From Mytilus trossulus (Eukaryota), in assembly GCF_036588685.1 (NCBI RefSeq), contig NC_086386.1, forward strand, positions 55,118,001 through 55,182,000: a stretch of DNA of 64,000 nucleotides. The letters are read 5' to 3'. Both the position numbers and the translations under genes were made by a program. Shown here piece after piece: positions 3,001 to 57,900 of the stretch (position 1 is the first letter of the stretch; the number at the start of each line of letters is the position of its first letter). Under the pieces are notes generated by a model. It did no database searches and had not been told where the DNA came from. It was given only the letters and a program-made list of their open reading frames with translations.

Positions 3001-6000
3001 CATTATTTACATACTTTTATTGATTTATATAATCAAGTAGGTATTATTCAATATAGGAAAAGGATTATTAATTTTAATCTAGAATTAGGTCAGCTGGTAA
3101 TCACATTGATGTCAATATTATTGCGTACCCTTCCGGTGCACTAGATTTAAATTCTGGCTTTTGGAGGGGTTCGTGTTGCTAAGACTTTATTTTTCTGTGT
3201 TAACTTTTTTTCTCTGAAGGTGTTGTTTGTCCTTTAGCCGGTTTGTCGTATGATCATGGTATCTATTTTTAATCACTTATGATTTTTCAAATCTCTTGAC
3301 ATCTTTTCCCTATCTTGGTTTATTGTTCTAGTTGGCTGACTATTATATCTTATATCTTAATATTCAAACGTTAAGTTATCTATCATGCTTTAAGTAGTAT
3401 GCATTCAAATTTGCTTGAACTTGAAAGTAAATATATCGTCAAAAACTCTGCTTCCAAATGATAAAAAAAACTTTTTATTTTATATTAGAGTACATTTATT
3501 CGAATTGATACTAAAGATACCAAGACAATTAATAAGCTTTGTGGAAGAATTATCTAAAACACGGAAACCTTTCAACCTTTAGTCTGAATTCTGAGGTTGG
3601 TTCTAAACACTAAATTCTTATGCAGTCGAAAACACTTTAAATTCCTAAAAAGAAGTTTCAGAGCATTGTTATTCAAAACGGCAATTTGCTCAGAACTTTA
3701 AAAGTACAATAAACCCAACAAGCATTATAATTAGTACATTGTATCAACCCAAATGGATTAGATATGGTGAACATGTATAAATGAATGAAACAGTTTAAGA
3801 TTAAGATCTTGCCATATTTAATGGACATTTGCCTTGTTAATTGCATTCAATAGGAATGATTTGTTTTTCTTGCCAAGTTTAATTAATAACAATTACTGGT
3901 CTACTTTTTGGACTTTACAAAAAGATCATACCATTGAACTATAAAATATAGATGATATAAAGATATACATTTGTACATAGACCGACAGATTTAAGACCTC
4001 TGATAAGTGTACTGTTGAAATGTTTGGAATTATTCATCAAAAACAATAATATTTGCGTCGTCTAAAGTTTAAATCTTTATTTTATTGAATAATCATTTCT
4101 GTCAATGACCGTTAGGAAATGCAATGAAATAACAGATACGTGAATAAACAAAAAAAAAGAAAAAAAAAGAAACGTCAATACAACAAAAAAACTCTTATGA
4201 AGACTGGAATTAAGGAGCACAGGCCTCAACTCGGCCGATTCAGGGAAACAAATTCACCAAAAGATTGCTAATTGTTTGAGGTTATTTAGATTATTACATA
4301 TTGCTCCTTCTTATAACTTTATCTTCTTTGCATTCTTTTATAGACGAATTTTGTGTCATTTGACAATTAAATTTTAGCAAAGCTTCGTTTTGGGATGAAA
4401 AACAGTATGATAAACACCAACACATTAATCCGTAATTAAAAAGTGGAAAACAAGCTTTTTCTGAATTTCATACGTCCCAATCACTTTTCTTGATTTATCA
4501 TCATCAGAAACACTAAAAGCTAAATCTTATGATTGAATAAGAACCGACACAAATAATCATTTTAAACACACATAGCAGACAAAAGTGACACAAATATGAG
4601 AGCATTTGTTTAGTCGTATTTTATAAACTGCCATGTGCCACATCAAATTTATGTCCGTTTTGTTATTTCAAAATTTTGGAATCTGGTACATACATGTTTT
4701 ATGTAAATAAAAGTGAGGATAACTATATAGCTATCATGCAGCTTTTCTTAACTTAAATTTGACATCATTTCTTTTTAAAGTACTTGATATAGAAAAAGTT
4801 ATTTCAATCGTTTAATTTGAGAATCTATCATATTTCAGAGCAAATTTATGTTTTATCAGTAACATTTTTTTTAATATAAAAACTGACTTAAAAAGGTTAT
4901 CTATAAATAAAAGTAAGAATAGATATATTTCTATCATGCCGATTTACTATTCAAAAACACAAATTTCTTTTTAACAATATGGCTCTTTATTAAATATACA
5001 ATCGTATGTATGTATGAGGATACGTTTACATATACTATTGAACAAAATCATTACGGCTTATTGAAGTAAGGCATTATAATAACATAATACCCCCTTTACA
5101 AGTTTCATTACATACAACAATATAGGTCACGGTCGCCTTGATCTACTTATCGTAATGTTAAATATATTACATCTCTTTGTTAAATTGTGTTAGCAATCCT
5201 AAAGGATTTAGATACGTATATTTCTATATAAAGAGAAGATGTGGTATGATTTTGCAGGTTTGAATTATTATACCATGTATGTTGAAATCCTATCAACTTT
5301 TATAGTGTATGTAAAGAGAAGTTTTCAGTACAAAACATTGTATTTAAAGAAAAGCATATTGTACAACATATTTTTATTCTCATAGAAATGTCACTAAGAA
5401 TAGTATGAATAAAGTATTTTAGCAGTTTGCTATAGAAATCGATATTGTTTTATCGGTTAATACAGACTGGGGTCCAGGCTTCCCACTTTGCCAAAGCTGC
5501 CTACTGACGAAATATATTTTACAGATAAAACTAGGATAAAGCAAGGATTTCCTCTTATCGTCTGTATAGAATGTAGCATCTCAGAAACACCTCAAAGAGA
5601 AACCAGTCATATTTCATATTAAAATTAGAAGATTGGAAACGATTTTATATGAGAAACTATCCCCATGATTTAAAATGAAGTAGAATAGTACATGTTAATT
5701 GTTGGCACATATGTACTAAGTTGTTAACTTCACACGTGTATGAACTATGAATTGCACTGTTAACATAATATATATTACTTTTTTCATAAAATCTGCACGA
5801 AATTTGGTAAAATTGTTTCAGTCTGTGTTTGATTTACGATTGAACATTGTGAGAACAATGAACGGATATGGTATAACCATAAGCCCGGATATCGAAATAT
5901 TTCTTGTTAATATACTTATTCTTCTACATTGTGTCTGAGCCTCCTACAAATACAACTGATATTCAAAGACACTAAACAGTTATTGTCTAAATATCTTTGC

Positions 6001-45048: not shown

Positions 45049-47875
45049 TTTATACTACTTTGATGTAGCACAGACCTGCCAACTTTCCCCCTTTGTGTAG
45101 GATATCTCCATTAGAGATGTTAACCTAACCCTAATGATTACCAATAAATTAGACAAAATACTTTTAAAAATGCATTCCGAGGAATACAAAATATTTAAAG
45201 GTATACTCATTAAAAAGTAAAGTACACTAATAACATGCATATGTATGTATTAGGTCCTCTCGGCTAAAAATCCTCCATAGAAATTTTTGAAAAGTTCTCA
45301 CCTAAAAACACCTGAAAATCCGCATATTGGACTTTCATCCTTTTTTAGAGTCAAATTAACTTTTGATCACACATGTCATAAGATATGTAGATCGAGATAT
45401 TGATCAAAAAGCATTTTTATTTTTTGTTTTTATAGTAAATTTTATTCTTTCGGCACTTTTTGAAATTGGCCCATCTGTGAAAAAAATCATCGATAAATTG
45501 GCCCTACCTCTTTTATTTTAAACCGGTACATATGATAACGTACATGTATACATATATTCGCTTGTCAAATGGCCTACAAATGACGTTTATACTACTTTGA
45601 TGTAGCACAGACCTGCCAACTTTCCCCCTTTATGTAGGATATCTCCATTAGAGATGTTAACCTAACCCTAATGATAACCAATAAATTAGACAAAATACTT
45701 TTAAAAATGCATTCCGAGGAATACAAAATATTTAAAGGTATACTCATTAAAAAGTAAAGTACACTTATAACATGCATATGTATGTTTTAGGTCCTCTCGG
45801 CTAAAAATCCTCCATAGAAATTTTTGAAAAGTTGGCAGTTAAATGGTAGGTTTTTTTCATTTAGCTCACTATATATGTACATATGTAGTGTCGGTGATTT
45901 AGAGACAGTTAAACTTACGCTTCAAACGTTAACACTACTTTAAACGCCGTTTCCATTTACATTGTTAACGTCATCATATCTTCTGTCAACGTTGTGCTAT
46001 TGTTATGTATCATGTTACTATATTGAGGTCAGATTATACGATCAAACGAACAGACGTTGTTTTACTGCCTGTCTAGACTTTTAGTTAACCCATCCGTCAC
46101 ATGTAGTACGGGATTGCCCATTGTTGAAGGCCATACTTTAACTATAATAGTTACTTTCATGACGTCAGTTTTTATTTAGTGGATAGTTGTCGCATTGGCA
46201 ATCCAACTACATATTTCTTCCAACTTTATAAAGAGCCATGGCCAATTTGCCGGCGATTTGTTTCATTCGATTAGATAGGTAAATCATGCTTTAAATAGCC
46301 CGATAGATGTTAATTATAGTACATGATAATACGTCACGTCATCTATTTTCATACCTTGAACAGGTACTCCTACATAAACAAGGCCAAGACTATTGATTTT
46401 TTAATATTGATTTTATTGTATTATTAACATCCTTTATGCAAGGTGCCATACCACGTAACATGCCAAGGGAGCCAAATAACACGGAACAAATTCAAATCTT
46501 GATTGTCTCATTCTAAATATATGTATATCTGTACTTTTCCTGGTCTTTTAAGGTTTTATCGTCTATAAGATAAGATACTACATGTTTATATTTTAACCCG
46601 AGACCATCTTTAATACCGTCAGTAAGTCATAGATCACCCTGTGTTACTGACACATGTTATATTGCCTTTTCTGTCATTTTAACAAATCGGACCTTCGTTG
46701 TGATACAGATGCAACAGCTTCTTGATGTTTTACCTACAATCACGATTTGTAGTGTGATTGATTGTTCTGTTGTGTTGTTTTATTTTCTGATGACTGAAGT
46801 ACCGGTGTAGGGACGGTGGTAAACATTTCAGAACTAGTATCTAAACAGTTTGTGAATTGGCGACAAAGTTGTTGTTGACTGCATTTGTTACATATGATAC
46901 CATGTTCCAAAAAGGTTTCGAAAAATAGTTTGTGTTGTTTTGAAACTTGTATACAATGGCCTTATTTTAAGTTATGTGTATATAACCCCCGCAATATATA
47001 GGTTTCATTGCTATATGATTAATTCTCGTGTTATTGGTTATCAGTTTGACGGCAGTTGGTCCTTGGATATATGTAATAAATGTAACCACATTAATAGAAA
47101 GTAAGTCAAGAGTATGGATAGTCTAGGAATGCACACAATGAGCAATACATTTTTTTTTCTTTGATACATGTAAAAAGATAAACTAGTAAACTATATAGTC
47201 AAAATGAACCAGAATGACTCTATGAATTAAGCAAACATCCGAAAAAATATGATAGAAACATTAAAATTTAATATAACAATACAAAAAATGCAAATATTCT
47301 GAGCGAGATTCGAACCCTTTCTTTAAAACCATCATTAATTAGTAGTTGTGTGCTCTACTAATGGAGCTACGGCGATGCTTATACATATCTCTCTTATTAA
47401 GAATCTATATCGGTACAATTTATCGATGTTACAATTTTTTCTTTAAAAAGTTGTTTTTTATGTAATAAGGACACTCTAAACCAATTTCATTTTTGAGTGA
47501 ACAAGTTGTATGAATAACAACAGTCATAAAAAGTATAACTTTTTTTTGGTTTGAAATGTCCTTCTTAGGGGATTCCATGTTTTTCTCACCTAAAAACACC
47601 TGAAAATCCGCATATTGGACTTTCATCCTTTTTTAGGGTCAAATTAACTTTTGATCACACATGTCATAATATATGTAAATCGAGATATTGATCAAAAAGC
47701 ATTTTTATTTTTTGTTTTTATAGTAAATTTTATTCTTTCGGCACTTTTTGAAATTGGCCCATCTGTGAAAAAAATCATCGATAAATTGGCCCTACCTCTT
47801 TTATTTTAAACCGGTACATATGATAACGTACATGTATACATATATTCGCTTGTCAAATGGCCTACAAATGACGTC
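45049..47875 (+). repeat. Local P-Q-P-spacer-Q duplication
   Basis: P ~45049-45295 = ~45586-45832; Q ~45295-45585 = ~47585-47875; near-identical. Confidence 0.88.
47299..47373 (-). repeat. tRNA-derived sequence (pseudo-tRNA or SINE head)
   Basis: Minus strand A box TAGCTCCATTAGTAGAGC and B box GGTTCGAATC; no proper acceptor or anticodon stems. Confidence 0.55.
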
Positions 47876-50127: not shown

Positions 50128-50212
50128 GTCTTCTTTCCACTTAATACATCTTAACTATATAAAGAAAAACACAACACAAACTTATGTTGTTGACTAGCTC
50201 GAGTACTGCATA
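50128..50212 (-). repeat. Split direct repeat B2 (85 bp), 3' end of the element
   Basis: Identical by eye to 50823-50907. Confidence 0.93.
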
Positions 50213-50650
50213 TTGTGAGCTGCCGATTTAATAAGACAAATGATCAATATAAACATATTATACACTATACAATGTGAAAACAATAACATCATTGTTCAAC
50301 AAAAATATATACTCATCAATGTTGACCTTTTGTATTAGAATAACTGAATAAATGAATGTTTCGTGGCCGCCCAGGAAAAACCCTTTTAGGAAACCTGTGT
50401 CCTTTTGTCCATGCCAACGAAACTCTAAGTGTTGGACCTCACTTATCAAATGAGAAAAAGAAAAACATAATTTTGTTTGTAAATATCGAAATAGAAAAGA
50501 AAGCGAGTCATTAGGACTCAAGGGCTATGAAAAGTTTTGGTACAAAAGTCTTAATACGATTACGTTTGTATAGCCAATCAACCTACATAAATATCAATAT
50601 ATTTATCAAATACAAAATTATGCAAATCTTTTTTCCTTAAAAAACCCTTA

Positions 50651-50907
50651 AAAATACGATGTTCACAGTACGAAGTACAGGCTAGAATTAACTATATATA
50701 ACAGTCACTTTACAACCTAATTTTTTGGCGCCAAAAATTCCTACGCCTACACGTACATGTATTACACATGCGCAAGAAGACAATCAATTCCCGTTATACT
50801 TATGTGCCTCGGGAATTTTTTAGTCTTCTTTCCACTTAATACATCTTAACTATATAAAGAAAAACACAACACAAACTTATGTTGTTGACTAGCTCGAGTA
50901 CTGCATA
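50651..50907 (-). repeat. Internal B1-A2 junction (B1 50823-50907, A2 50651-50822)
   Basis: Directly abutting copies of both element termini, reproducing the expected circle junction. Confidence 0.93.
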
Positions 50908-50943
50908 GAGCAACAAAGATAGAAAAATAAGAAAATAAATATA

Positions 50944-51957
50944 CTACAAGCCTTAAGTTTTAGATACGGCTAACCTACTTTCTACAGAGTCGGCTACGTA
51001 GCCGTCTTTGCTTGAATCACTTTTCCACCTACCATGGCGCTTCCAGCACCTTTCATTGACACCTGAATTTGCCGCCATAGTGGCACCACCAGACCTAAGA
51101 GAATGCAACCCAAGATTCAATTCAGGTGCAACTAATCTTAATCTCTTAATAACACACTCCCTAGCAGTAGTGTAACTAATAGGTTTGTTAATACTAATTA
51201 ATGCACATTTTTTCTTACTTCTGTACAAAGGTCGAAATAAAAACATATCACTATCCAAAACTAATTCAGCTAAACTTACATATCTAAAAAACATAGCATA
51301 AGGACAAGCCAAAGTATGACCTTTACAAATTAAAATTTCATCACCTGATCTGTACTGATCAGTCTTACTTCGCCTAATCTTAATAACTAAATGCTCTTCT
51401 TTTACGAAAAAATCGTTACATCTAAGCTGACTTAACTCATTAAAACGTAAAAAACCACTGAAACCTAGCAAAGTCATCAAAAGATCCCTAACTACCAGTA
51501 AATCTGTAGAAAAATGAAACATAGAACATAACCGAATTAAAATATCAGTAGTGACTGGGTCTTTCTTATTAACAACAGGTTTAGCAGTTCTTTTAGCTGA
51601 TTCAACTAAACTTTCAACAAAAGAGTTATTTGTAGGGTCAATTTGACCACACATTTCATGTGCCCATTTAATTGAATAAACAGCAGATGATACCGTACTG
51701 TACGTTGATCCGGAATCTAACAAATTAGACAAATATAAAGCAATATGTATAGGCGAGGCAGGCATAGAAATTAAACAATGTTTACTAACAAATTTTTCCC
51801 ACTTTAAAAAAACCATAGTAATATTTTTTCACAGTACTGTCACTTCTGGATCCCAATAAACGTGTTGATAAGCTGGCAACCGAACTGTACAAAGGGTGAG
51901 TTTCATCAATTCCACTATGTTCCACGGCGTCACGCACAAACTGTTCTTGCTTTATTC
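50944..51957 (-). pseudogene. Tyrosine recombinase (YR) of the DIRS/PAT element
   Basis: Track ORF 50953-51816 holds the catalytic residues FLRFNE (R), RSKTDQ (K), HSLRSGG (HxxR), HGRW, GY (Y). The N-terminal part (IKQEQF..SRSDSTVKKYYYG) lies in another frame across a 7-T run at 51806-51812; TAA at 50953 probably truncates a terminal LGL. Confidence 0.92.
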
Positions 51958-51979
51958 CTGTGCAAAAGAAATACTACAA

Positions 51980-54799
51980 TCAAAATCTGATTTTAAAAGC
52001 AATCATTGCAAAATTCAAAGGATTTACTCCAAAAATACCATTATTACCTCTACCTCTTACAATTAAGTTTTTATTTGTAAGCCGCATTTTACTCTCAACA
52101 AAAGTGCAATTCGAATTGTGTAATAATGCCCAGAATGGAGCTGATTTCCAAAATGGAACAACAAGAGTACTGTCCGCGCTATCGTTGCATACTTTTCTAA
52201 TGACCTTGGCTATCAAATTTGGCGGTGGCGCCAACCAGTTATTTTCTCCTTGCCAATTTTGCGTGAAAGCGTCAATAGCTTCAGTACCTTTGCACCAACA
52301 TTTTGAATTAAACCTAAAACATTTACTGTTATAATCAGTAGCAAATCTATCTATAGAATGTTTTCCCCAAAGCTCATCAAGCATGTCAAACACATCAAAA
52401 TGAATTCCCCAATCATCACAATCTGAATATCTACTTAAAGTATCAGCTATTGTGTTTTGTTCCCGAGAACCCATTGTGTCTTAATACTTATATTGTTTTC
52501 TGTGCACAATTCATTTAAATCGCAAGCAATCTCTTGAAGATCTAACTTTCTACTACCGTTCTTAATTATGCTTGTAACGTTTTTATTATCAGTATTCAGT
52601 TGAACTGTATGATTTTTCAGCATTGTAACAGAACTTTTAACTACTCTACCTACTGCTTCAAGCTCTCTCCATGTAGAGCTTTTAACACTTTCAGATACCG
52701 ACCAGTTACTAGTCACAGTTATCAAACTGTTATAAGGAACTTCTAGACCACAATCAGTCATTTTCATAATACAATCAGAGTCACAGACAGACTCTGTATC
52801 AGCTGGGACTACATATCCCCCAAAGCCGACATCTGATGCGTCAGTATACGCCACAAAATCACAAAAATCTGACTCATGCAGATTAAAACCCTTTCTATTG
52901 AACTTTCTTACGTTCTCAAACCAAAAATATAGCTCTTCAATAGCTACAGAATTCAATACTACAAGCGAGTTCCAACTTGCTCTCATTATAAGACAATTGT
53001 ACAATTCTCGAGTTCTAAGTCTACAAACGTTTCCCATTACAGACATCATTGATATTATCTGTCCAACAATACCAGCCACAAATCTAGCATTATACAAAAG
53101 CTTGCCTTTACCTACACTTATCAATGTTTTGTCAATAACAGAAAGAAGTCTTTCGACTCTCTCCTCGGTAATACTCAATTTTCCAAATTGCATTTCCCAA
53201 AATAACCCTATCCAAGTAATATTCTGTACAGGCAACCATATACATTTCTCTTCTGCTATTAAAAAACCAAACTCTGTCAAACTTTCTCTTACAAAAGTGC
53301 TAACACGGTGTGCTCAATCGAAGTTACTGTCTCCGCCCAAACCATCATCTAAGTACATTAGGATTCTAAAACCTTGACTCCTCCAGTACTTAACAACTTC
53401 TTTTGTAAGTTTGGTAAATATATGACCAGCGCTAGCAATTCCAAAAGGAAGAACATTAAATACATAATATCTGGTTGTCCCTTCAAATTGCCAACTAAAA
53501 CCTGTGATCTGGCAATATCTCTATGTGATGATAAGCACTTTTTAAATCAAAGCGAAACAGATAATTTCCTTTATTAAATAGTTGCTTGGCAACTGACCCA
53601 TCTTCAAACTTAAATTTAAACTGATGTATTCACTCGTTGATATGTCTGCAATCTAGAACCAATCTAGGTTTTGCTGATCTGTTATATGCTACCGTTAGCG
53701 GATTTACTACATACGGTATTTCGTGTACTTCTGAAATACACTTCTTATCTAATAATTTAGAAATTTCACCATTTACAAAAACAGAATTATCTAAAGATGA
53801 TTTATTATTTCTGAGAACACAACTGTCTGGAAGAGTTTTAAATGGTATACCATAGCCTTGCTCTATTACTTTTAAAATGTACTCTCTTGTACCAGTCTCC
53901 TTCCATTTGTGTATTGCCTTATTTAATTTACCTACTGGTGTCAAAACATTCACCTGTAAATTTAAATGACCAGACGTCTGGTCATTACTCTCGTCATACC
54001 TGACTGAACCGTTAACACAATTGACCATTGTTTCGTTTACCTCTTTGTGAGCAGAATTCAATAAACGACTCCCCCCTTTTAACTCAAAATTTGATTTGTA
54101 ACTCAAATCCCAAGCTAAATTACAACATTTATCAAATATTTTACTTAACTTTGGTCGTTTCTTTTCAGGACACTCATTCTGCCAATGACCAGGCTTGTAA
54201 CAATTATAACAAACACCAGGCTTCCTTGATACTGTCTGTCTATCTCTGCTTCCACTGGAACTCGCTGGTTTTACATAAGGCTCAGCGCGGGATCTCCTCT
54301 TTACTCTGTCTGCTTTGATCTTCCTTTCCGCTCTGTTTTGTGCTTGAAATATCTTTCTGTCATCTTCTGAATCGTCCGCCAAAGGATTTGCGGTATACTC
54401 CTGAACTAATTTCCACCCACATTCTGAAGAGTCTGCCATCTTTACTAATTTTTGCCGATAATTTAAAAGTTCAATACCTTCAGATATCTTCTGTTTAGCC
54501 CTCGCGGCAGATGGGTCTTTTGGCTCGATAACAGCTTCTGCTTCTTTCAACGCGACAGACACTTTCTGGTTGAACTTAAATTGATCTTCACAACTTTTCC
54601 TCTGAAATTTGTAACTGTCTGTTGATAAAAGGTCATTGTGAATACGGTTGAACTGTGCGTCCGAACGTTCCTTCTGTTGCTGGTCATAAACTTGAAATTT
54701 AGTAGTAAATAAACTGTCCAACTTAGATAAAAATTCATTCTGTGATCTATTTACTTCTTCACTAACGATACGCTTCACATTATTTTCTAAGTCATCCAT
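51980..54799 (-). pseudogene. Disrupted gag-pol polyprotein (gag zinc knuckle, reverse transcriptase, RNase H, DNA methyltransferase-like domain)
   Basis: ATG at 54799 (MDDLENN); CYNCYKPGHWQNEC; NPLTV..KPRLVLDCR; FDLKSAYHHI; VLPFG; YLDD at 53344-53355; YTDAS, SSTWRELEA, TDN (RNase H); DRFAT..FNS..DAFTQNW..NWLAPPP (MT-like). Lesions: TGA 53630-53632, frameshift ~53500, TGA 53314-53316, frameshift ~52467. Confidence 0.92.
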
Positions 54800-54823: not shown

Positions 54824-54995
54824 AAAATACGATGTTCACAGTACGAAGTACAGGCTAGAATTAACTATATATAACAGTCACTTTACAACCTAATTTTTTG
54901 GCGCCAAAAATTCCTACGCCTACACGTACATGTATTACACATGCGCAAGAAGACAATCAATTCCCGTTATACTTATGTGCCTCGGGAATTTTTTA
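54824..54995 (-). repeat. Split direct repeat A1 (172 bp), probably carrying the element promoter
   Basis: Identical by eye to 50651-50822; TATATATAG on the minus strand near 54870; palindrome TTTTTGGCGCCAAAAA at 54895-54910. Confidence 0.93.
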
Positions 54996-57900
54996 TTCGC
55001 CGCGTGTCATTAAGAAGAATCGAATAAACTTTTCGAGCCAATTTACTAAAATGGCTGAAGAGTCTGTTTATGTTTGCTTAAAAGAAAAAGACATGTTCTC
55101 CTACATGTCCCATGTTTATTCAAACATTTACCGTTATTTTTAAGACAAATAATATTTTATTTCATTTGTACATAATTAGCAAAGAAAAATAAACATTATG
55201 CTGTAGACATTTTACGAGCCATTTTCAGTCAATCAATAAAGTAGCATTTATTTGACGATGTGTGTTCACTTTCATTTCATTATTTTTCCATACACAAAAG
55301 TAGCTTTAAAACCACTAAAAGCATATTGTCAGACAACAAATATGATTGCTTTTAGTTAAACAAGATAGTCTATATTGCGATGGGCGTGGGTGTGGGATGC
55401 GATACGGCATTTATTTCTGTATTCTTTATTTTTTTAAATCATTTTTATCTATATTGCGCTTAATTCTCTATATATTCTCTATTTTAGAGCAATAGTTTCA
55501 TCCTTGACGATAATTCTGGTGTTTTGTTGGGCTTTTTTTTTTGGAGGGGGGGGTATTTTTCGTTTGGTCCCTTTATTTTTCTTTCTCCATCATCAAACCC
55601 CATCCAGACCCTTAAACCTGTAAAGCAAACATAATTTGTGGCTATTTTATTCCATCCATTGTAACATGCCATAGTGTCGTGTTAAAGAAACCCCGTAGAG
55701 ACAATACCAAACGAAAACTTAGAGTTATCTTATGTGCAATGCGTCACCAATTGACACACTTAGAGGTCGGATTCTTTATGTTGACTCATTCTAAAAGAGC
55801 TAGCATGTTAAAATAAAGTTTGTCGGCGGAATGCATAGCGACGATCTAAGTAATATCGTATGGATATCATATGTTCCCATCGAGATACACATTTAATATA
55901 TGTCAGTGGGCGTTGCACATCAGTTCGGTCAATCATTTAAATGTTTGTGAAAATTTATCCATCCCTCTTTCCTAATGAATGCAACCATCCAGTAAGAAAG
56001 TCTTTAATATAGCTGTACCAGTGTTGATTCTAACGTCGCAGAGTACTTAACCATCCCTGTTAAGCTTTTGAATGTTTAGGTGTAAACTTTTCTGATGATT
56101 ATGAATCCTGAAAGTGACTAGGATGATGTACAATTTAAAAGGGTGTTTATTTCATTTACGTGCAAAAAATAGAGCAAAAGTGTCTAAAGATTAAAAAATA
56201 AATAAATGAGGCACCCCATCCTCCTAAATCCAGACTTCATAAATATAAAATTGAGAATGGAAATGGGGAATATATTAAAGAGACAATAACCCGACCAGCA
56301 TTCGATGGTCGTCGATGCGTCTACATGGCATCAATAAAATCCCGCATCCGGAGGTGGGCCTCGGCTGCCCTCAGCTGGCATCCAAATAAAAAATTGTAAA
56401 GTTCAGTGAAAGCGACAGTCACACTTATCTCATAGACAAATGTTTTTAAAAAACATACAAAGGCCAGACGTTCCATATATGGAAAAGGCGTTAAAATGCG
56501 GCGGGGTAAATTATTTTTTATGAGATTTATCCTCTCCGTTTTGCTATACCGCAAGCCAACGCAGAATAAAGAAACTTAAAGTAAAACTGAGTTAAAAAGA
56601 AGTCCAATTCCGTTGTACATTTGTAAGATCAGTTCTTAAACATGTTCATGATGTTTAAAGATCATCATTTCTAAATATTCAATACGAAACGAAAAATCAC
56701 TTTTCCTCCTGAAAACGCGGGGATCAAGCTTATTTATGAATTGTTCAGAGATATAGATCATAATGCACTGCTTGTACTGGTAAATAAAGCAACAACACTG
56801 ATGGAAATAAATTGTTTTTAATTTAAGTTGTCTACCATGGAAAGAGTATTTAAAGTCTCATCAAAAAGTGTTTGCATTGTTGTCAACTTATTATATAACG
56901 TTGATAATTGATTTTGATATAATATAAGGATATTTGAACAAGGATAAACAAAAACACAATACCGCATAATTTGTTTTGGATATTTAGCGACGAATTACTG
57001 AAGTTCGTTTGTAGATAGATATTTTAAATGCTATTATCAAACGTATGTCGTAGTGGGTGACATTGATTTTAATGTTTTTTTATTTATTTGTAGCGAGGAA
57101 CGCAAGAAAATTAAGCTTATTTCCGTATAATGAACGAAATTTTGTTTCATGTTTTTTGATTATCTTCTCTGAATGGAAAAACTTCCGCATGTTGTGCCTT
57201 GACCTCGTAACATGTAACAATTGATATTTTTTCTTTGAAATTCACCTTCGTTTATATCGTGTTTTACGTTTCTAAGCGTTTATACATAATGAATAGGTTT
57301 CAAATGTATGTTTTACCGCTCCCGATGAAAATTATCCAGAAATGCTGTTCGCACGCACGGTATAAATTAAACGTTTTTTTTATTATTCACAGGAAGCCTA
57401 ACCACAATGAAACGTTAAATAAACGTTAGAATATAATACATACATTGCATTTGACATTAACCTAGCAGGGCACTTTGCAATACTTTTCCCTTTTCACAAA
57501 TGTGACCTACCGATCGCGACTATTTACTGGATTTGTAATAACACAAGCAACATGACGGATGCATCATGTGAAGCAGGACTTTCTTACCCTTCTGGAGCAC
57601 CAGAGATCACCCCAATAGTTGGTGTGATTCGGATATCTTAGTCTTACGTTTTCTATGTTGTGTCTTGTTTACTATTATTTTTCTGTTTGACTGTCCCTCT
57701 GGTATATTTCGCCCTTCTTTTGAAAGGCGCCTGAAATATTCTATTTTACACGAGAAACCTCTTCTTGGCTTTTCTTTTTTGGTATCGTGTTTTCTACTTA
57801 TGTAACCATACATTTGATCATAAGATGATGAAAGAAGTTTTAGTGACCTTGACTGACTATACAGGTCTAAGTACAAATGGCCATGGATGTCTCGAAATTC

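Follow-up and report, generated by a model that had tools for sequence, protein, structure and literature searches.

How does a retrotransposon make its tyrosine recombinase (YR) when the recombinase frame lies behind pol and seems to have no start codon of its own? The question is raised by an element on the minus strand of the 64,000-nt stretch of Mytilus trossulus DNA analyzed here (the window, whose numbering is used throughout), for which the initial annotation had proposed two RNAs from one promoter, an unspliced Gag-Pol message and a spliced Gag-YR message with all of pol as the intron. The answer reached here, to which a probability of roughly 0.7 can be given, is that pol is cut out at a single acceptor and that the choice of donor likely sets the product, donor 2 giving free Gag and phase-1 donors giving Gag-recombinase fusions.

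The repeat search of the window delimits a 4.87-kb element with the split direct repeats A1, B1, A2, and B2 (all features are on the minus strand). A1 forms the 5' end (54824..54998; repeat family D3, 175 nt, 99% identical to A2) and A2, of the same repeat family, is found at 50651..50825, while B1 (50823..50907; repeat family D4) is paired with B2 at the 3' end (50128..50212), some 440 nt beyond A2. This stretch of about 440 nt (50213-50650) is common to full copies, the repeats being adjacent in the scheme of the published papers, and 31 nt of it, present in copy L016, are missing from the window copy. The N-terminal coding exon of gag runs from the ATG at 54799 to 54478 (54478..54799), i.e., 322 coding nt or 107 codons plus one nucleotide, and the CCHC zinc knuckle of Gag (aa 196-212; Pfam PF00098) is encoded at 54164..54214. 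Then come a spacer and pol (RT, RNase H, and Dam-like methyltransferase; 51980..54148), which lie inside the alternative intron and share the gag frame in intact copies, and the YR exon (50944..51957; 337 aa in L016). The window copy itself is broken, with a stop at 53632 and indels near 53503, 52467, and 51812, the last being a frameshift in YR, where an early stop also occurs at 50955-50953. A DNA search gave 13 genomic matches to the element, and the 12 others than the window copy were retrieved; a single gag-pol frame of about 943 aa is found in L016, L017, and L020, and L016 and L020 also have an intact YR frame. In L016, the Pfam domains zf-CCHC, RVT_1, and RVT_3 score above the cut-off, and the Dam-like domain (aa 796-880, E 5e-5) and RT_RNaseH (E 0.004) score below it. 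The YR match to PF00589 (E 4e-5) is likewise below the cut-off; homologs carry PF00589, and the R, K, HxxR, H, and Y motifs, which we take to be the catalytic residues, are conserved in the YR alignment. Gag-N is 99% identical to a protein from a Mytilus species.

Regarding classification, the PAT-like type is defined by split direct repeats, a gag zinc knuckle, RT, RNase H, a methyltransferase, and YR in the passages available from PMC3266345, PMC4157794, and PMC6681497. The present element displays split repeats in the arrangement A1...B1-A2-B2, gag, RT, RNase H, and methyltransferase-like domains, and a YR in place of a DDE integrase. Since the split repeats and the methyltransferase domain fit the definitions in those parts of PMC3266345 and PMC4157794, it can be classified as a PAT-like YR retrotransposon, a class set here from published definitions. 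A Ngaro-like assignment is opposed by the Dam-like methyltransferase domain and a DIRS1-like one by the lack of an inverted pair at the element ends. At the left junctions of L014, L016-L021, and L024, NAWT precedes the A-run of A1 and resembles the GACT found where B1 meets A2, a pattern to be expected if the recombinase integrates at a short core; by eye, no target duplication was seen. Elsewhere in the window, direct repeats of 258-292 nt with 97-99% identity form two pairs (45049-45843 and 47583-47874) that are unrelated to the element.

The candidate acceptor in front of YR is a pyrimidine tract followed by CAG (51958..51979; TTCTTTTGCACAG|GAATAAAG, with AG at 51959-51958). Its cut, 51958/51957, had been correctly placed by the initial annotation at about 20 nt past the pol stop (22 nt as measured here). 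Entry into the YR frame from this point demands a phase-1 donor and, as had also been predicted correctly, the gag donor at 54478/54477 supplies phase 1. A YAG|G acceptor in the YR phase can be found in 15/15 families and in the 7/7 metagenome relatives tabulated. Right after the acceptor, GAA TAA (51952..51957) overlaps the first YR codons and would act as the stop of a phase-0, free Gag product; the phase-0 frame stops within four codons in all 22 families and relatives, against a background of 0.28, although these families are homologous, so that neither the match in acceptor phase nor the position of the stop represents independent trials. Protein similarity sets in at the acceptor, identity being 11% ahead of it and 30% over the next 20 codons. 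The further claim that the YR N-terminus has no ATG holds for L016 from family 1, where the first Met after the acceptor is YR residue 65, but not for the 11 of 15 families with a Met at residue 29-30. By their conservation, the acceptor and the phase-1 gag donor are both more than chance.

The acceptor is real: two pol-less genomic copies, from two families, and data from RNA runs end exactly there. The proposal of an intron that spans pol and has its end at 51958/51957 is thus borne out by the joints in L024, L074, X8, and X22. The genomic evidence comes from 167 loci, namely 127 in 24 clusters (115 of the best 150 gag matches plus the first 12) and 40 of 56 further YR matches, the best 150 of 474 and the best 150 of 639 candidates having been scored in the genome searches. 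Exact loss of pol occurs in 2/167 loci, both times through a donor that had not been foreseen. This donor 2 (54143..54151, cut 54149/54148, phase 0), just past the zinc knuckle, has the non-canonical form AAG|TTAAGT, or AAG|ATAAGT in families 4-15. In L024 from family 1, which retains all four repeats and has its own flanks, the AAG at window position 54149 is joined to the first base past the acceptor, and the segment removed starts with TTAAGT. In L074 from family 4, with 44% gag identity to the window copy, the joint is homologous and the removed segment starts with ATAAGT. Both joints read Lys-Glu-stop, which implies free Gag. A third instance is provided by run X8, mapped on L024, in which a 58-nt contig over the donor-2 joint (depth 9.15) is found beside a 2265-nt contig holding the intron (depth 15.4); both contigs carry the sample's own variants at 3727 and 3736 and not those of L024. 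The joint contig, with 30+28 letters, falls short of the 31 letters that bridging requires, and that X8 is an RNA run is itself a guess. In L024 and L074, then, removal is exact between a U1-matching donor and the YAG acceptor, and the same removal is found in the short contig of X8, guessed as that run is to be RNA. Reading L024 as a canonical GT-AG splice with a one-base error was rejected, since this G is found again in L074 and in the X8 contig.

It could be argued that these copies lost pol by deletion, at the DNA level or through template switching, where a 2-nt AG microhomology occurs, the motifs being kept for protein or RNA structure. AG is indeed found on either side of both joints, the intron ends TT..AG and AT..AG are non-canonical, and other internal deletions occur (L151, L195, and an 850-nt skip in run X1). 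However, the breakpoints fall at the same pair of homologous positions in two unrelated families, for which the naive chance is below 1e-6 per deletion, the 5' point coincides with a U1-matching motif fixed at synonymous sites within a poorly conserved spacer, and in RNA reads the same acceptor base is joined to a third donor, which is canonical. A deletion origin is accordingly considered very improbable, and splicing remains the preferred reading. As to the X1 contig, it skips 850 nt of YR (50909-51760) with the non-splice ends GC..GC and is probably a deletion copy in the sample.

The two conserved donors were compared among families and copies. AAG|WTAAGT follows the knuckle in 15/15 families, as TT in families 1-3 and as AT in families 4-15, and is present in 93/110 copies. 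Donor 1, the phase-1 site GAAG|GTATTG in gag (54472..54481, cut 54478/54477), which would give Gag-N-YR, is found in 106/110 copies of clusters 1-16, and GAA GGT stands at this point in all families of clusters 1-15. Among the misses for the two donors are the two spliced copies as well as truncated or decayed ones. In the codon alignment of 13 families, the Glu of donor 1 is always GAA (13/13) and its Gly always GGT (13/13), with 0/23 other Gly columns fixed; the Lys (12/12), Ile (11/11), and Ser (12/12) of donor 2 are likewise each encoded by a single codon. Among 189 near-invariant gag-pol columns in these families, only 6 are single-codon, five of which are the donor residues just listed. 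Single-codon columns also occur in YR (4/104), which counts against a donor-specific reading. Taken together, these codon patterns indicate that donor 1 is under nucleotide-level selection, and it is in phase with YR. With donor 1 fixed in 13/13 aligned families, the acceptor present in 15/15, and the phases matching, the conservation of both sites called for by the initial annotation was found.

Joints were sought in 8 of 24 listed runs. Mapped on the window, X21, X24, X14, and X1 gave no joint at any donor; on L024, X22 provided six reads carrying window 53916-53887 directly before the acceptor. These reads point to a third, family-specific phase-1 donor (53881..53889, cut 53887/53886), which reads CAA|GTGAGT in seven sister copies and the degenerate GAGAGT in the window copy, and whose joint fuses 304 aa of Gag and spacer to YR with the frame kept. 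As a general route to YR, donor 3 was rejected, not being conserved outside family 1. Pol excision at one acceptor, with donors 2 and 3 joined to it, and the return of spliced RNA to the genome are thus observed. In X23, on L024, the joint bin has a depth of 3.0, consistent with three reads passing across it, and the contigs from X1, X13, and X14 follow the unspliced path only. The 75 reads of X21 are nearly all from the sense strand of the element and deepest over gag, with zero RNA depth across the 3' two-thirds of YR. Early in YR, an ATTAAA is found at 51672-51667 (minus strand), and the depth of X21, X22, and X23 ends about 30 nt downstream; this may be where the Gag message is polyadenylated early in the family of the window copy. 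As a general feature this signal was rejected, as it occurs in 2/11 families only.

Regarding donor 1, its joint to 51957 was found neither in the eight runs (X21, X24, X14, and X1 on the window; X22, X23, X13, and X8 on L024, where it would appear as a 329-nt skip) nor among the 167 loci, and a DNA search for family 1 gave no genomic copy with it. Listing a joint takes three reads and the raw-read sets are small (75, 16, 32, and 14 reads), so that at such depth the absence of the donor-1 joint weighs little; yet donor 3 passed the same threshold. The exact donor-1 joint can be found in five database proteins, P0136 (ENA, family-15-like), P0185 and P0293 (Pinctada), and P0271 and P0278 (Ptychodera, RefSeq), which are gene models or of unknown making. 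When fusions derived from raw contig calls were sought among the database proteins, only P0136 from ENA fitted. The predicted structure of the fusion P0278 was uninformative (mean pLDDT 48). The split-read expectation of the initial annotation is thus answered in part, since no 54478-to-51957 joint is seen in the shallow runs while other donors are joined to 51957; the same applies to the spliced Gag-YR message as such, for which pol removal at the acceptor and a selected, in-phase donor 1 stand beside 0/8 runs and 0/167 loci with the joint.

Could unspliced Gag-Pol and a donor-1 Gag-N-YR nonetheless be the only products? Donor 1 does show fixation at synonymous sites and the right phase, and database models use it, but every joint seen is that of donor 2 or donor 3 (L024, L074, X8, and X22), donor 2 is fixed as strongly as donor 1, and such a scheme leaves no source of free Gag. 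An exclusive two-product scheme therefore has hardly any credit left, and at least three or four products are to be expected. The main rival, still unlikely, is that donor 2 gives free Gag, that YR translation restarts on the donor-2 message at the Met near residue 30 or YR is reached through family-specific donors early in pol, and that donor 1 is a regulatory U1 site or splices elsewhere. The Met shared by the 11 families, the use of donor 3 in X22, and the missing donor-1 joint would agree with it, as would four RefSeq models of family 4 (P0013, P0286, P0287, and P0289) that join a phase-1 CAG|GTAAC donor in the RT (at NPLTVA) to the same acceptor; for a regulatory role, U1 has been tied to the control of premature termination in EVD, according to the portion of PMC5580714 consulted. 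Reinitiation is opposed by the late first Met of family 1 and by the conservation, as protein, of residues 2-21 past the acceptor, while other donors as the source of YR are opposed by family 5, which by a crude score has no strong phase-1 donor in pol, and by the presence of donor 1 in all 15 families. Weighing these points, donor 1, the sole phase-1 donor kept across the clade, probably gives Gag-N-YR, in which about 107 aa of Gag would be fused to YR, as its conservation and phase suggest.

Clusters 1-15 have gag and pol in one frame, and among metagenome relatives with a knuckle and no gag stop, donor 2 is present in 5/5 and donor 1 in 3/5, being lost in L215 and ambiguous in L214. L215 (311-4264), which keeps donor 2 and has lost donor 1, shows a different YR N-terminus without the usual YR start, and may serve as a natural test of the role of donor 1. 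Neither donor 1 nor donor 2 can be found in clusters 19-24, where gag has its own stop. In the YR tree, built from the analyzed sequences only and with broken copies of families 2, 14, and 19 left out, a branch with 100/99 support separates the fused, two-donor elements from the rest. Within clusters 19-24 (L157, L159, L161, L164, L166, and L167), pol is in an overlapping frame, and the YR frame again lacks an ATG and follows a pyrimidine tract with YAG, here in phase 0; a shared gag donor was not found. In families 11-13 (L113, L122, L127, and L109), the Gag knuckle ends with His in place of the last Cys (CxxCxxxGHWRxDH).

From these elements, the following mechanism can be proposed. Genome and Gag-Pol message would both be the unspliced RNA, since in intact copies gag and pol form one frame with no stop or frameshift between them. 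Joining donor 2 to the acceptor, as observed, brings in a stop within 1-3 codons and would thereby give an excess of free Gag, as in the copia splice. Donor 1 would instead yield the fusion of about 107 aa of Gag to YR and, in the family of the window copy, donor 3 at 53887 would yield the one with 304 aa of Gag and spacer. For an intact family-1 copy, the introns starting at donors 1, 2, and 3 are predicted to measure 2532, 2203, and 1941 nt. Lacking the +1 G, donor 2 is probably weak by design, which would let some RNA escape splicing and leave donor 1 able to compete. The spliced RNA retains both terminal repeats and from time to time returns to the genome as a copy. Delivery of YR into particles by way of its Gag portion is conjecture, and rather doubtful. 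Odds of about one in two may be given to the wider view that a marine-invertebrate PAT-like clade runs on a reading-phase switch, in which a G-less AT/TT donor sets the ratio of Gag to Gag-Pol and a canonical gag donor makes a particle-bound Gag-N-recombinase. If so, it would explain how DIRS-order elements without protease or frameshift make three proteins, and AT-AG and TT-AG introns kept by selection would be available as a natural series.

Compared with the PAT-like group and the DIRS order, the mussel element is alike in repeats and domains, but has gag and pol in one frame, a YR without overlap with pol, and expression via splicing. In the passages searched, the expression and ratio of gag, pol, and recombinase in the DIRS order are not addressed. 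No splicing of a PAT-like element's own RNA is mentioned in those of PMC3266345, PMC4157794, and PMC6681497, and a YR retrotransposon that splices its own genes was found neither in these, nor in the parts consulted of PMC7192593, PMC3783388, PMC9210276, PMC9940879, and PMC8226300, nor among literature listings on spliced YR or non-canonically spliced retrotransposons, Poulter and Butler (2015) and Goodwin and Poulter (2004) lying outside this scope. A likeness exists with the Ty1/Copia elements copia, BARE1 from barley, and EVD from Arabidopsis, which also have a single gag-pol frame and in which, as described in the portion of PMC5580714 consulted, splicing brings in a stop that gives free Gag, the copia intron spanning all of pol. 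It is likely that splicing in the mussel element works as the Gag splice of copia does, extended to the recombinase. While Ty1/Copia elements are LTR elements with a DDE integrase within pol, the integrating enzyme of the mussel element lies behind the acceptor and would be reached by a donor in another phase, and its Gag donor, unlike that of the copia-type splice, has no +1 G. Donors of this kind are used by spliceosomes: in the passages seen, human aAG|TTAAGT donors (FBXO9, ETV1) are spliced at +1 with usage in the order GC > TT > AT (PMC6280755), and U2-type AT-AC introns exist (PMC1557818). Whereas the known TT-AG, type II AT-AC, and hybrid AT-AG introns are rare single host introns, TT or AT is here kept clade-wide, always with an AG end. 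Donor 2 represents a rarely seen example of a non-GT 5' splice site kept by selection, in its TT and AT forms and across many diverged families, and a natural tool for the study of the spliceosome. For annotation, it means that aligners and gene callers demanding GT miss the Gag message; database models of these loci pair the acceptor with assorted donors. In retroviral env and foamy-virus pol expression, one promoter gives an unspliced genome RNA, and the downstream gene is obtained by splicing. The mussel element differs from these systems in that several donors are joined to one acceptor, the reading phase would decide the product, and the downstream gene is a recombinase.
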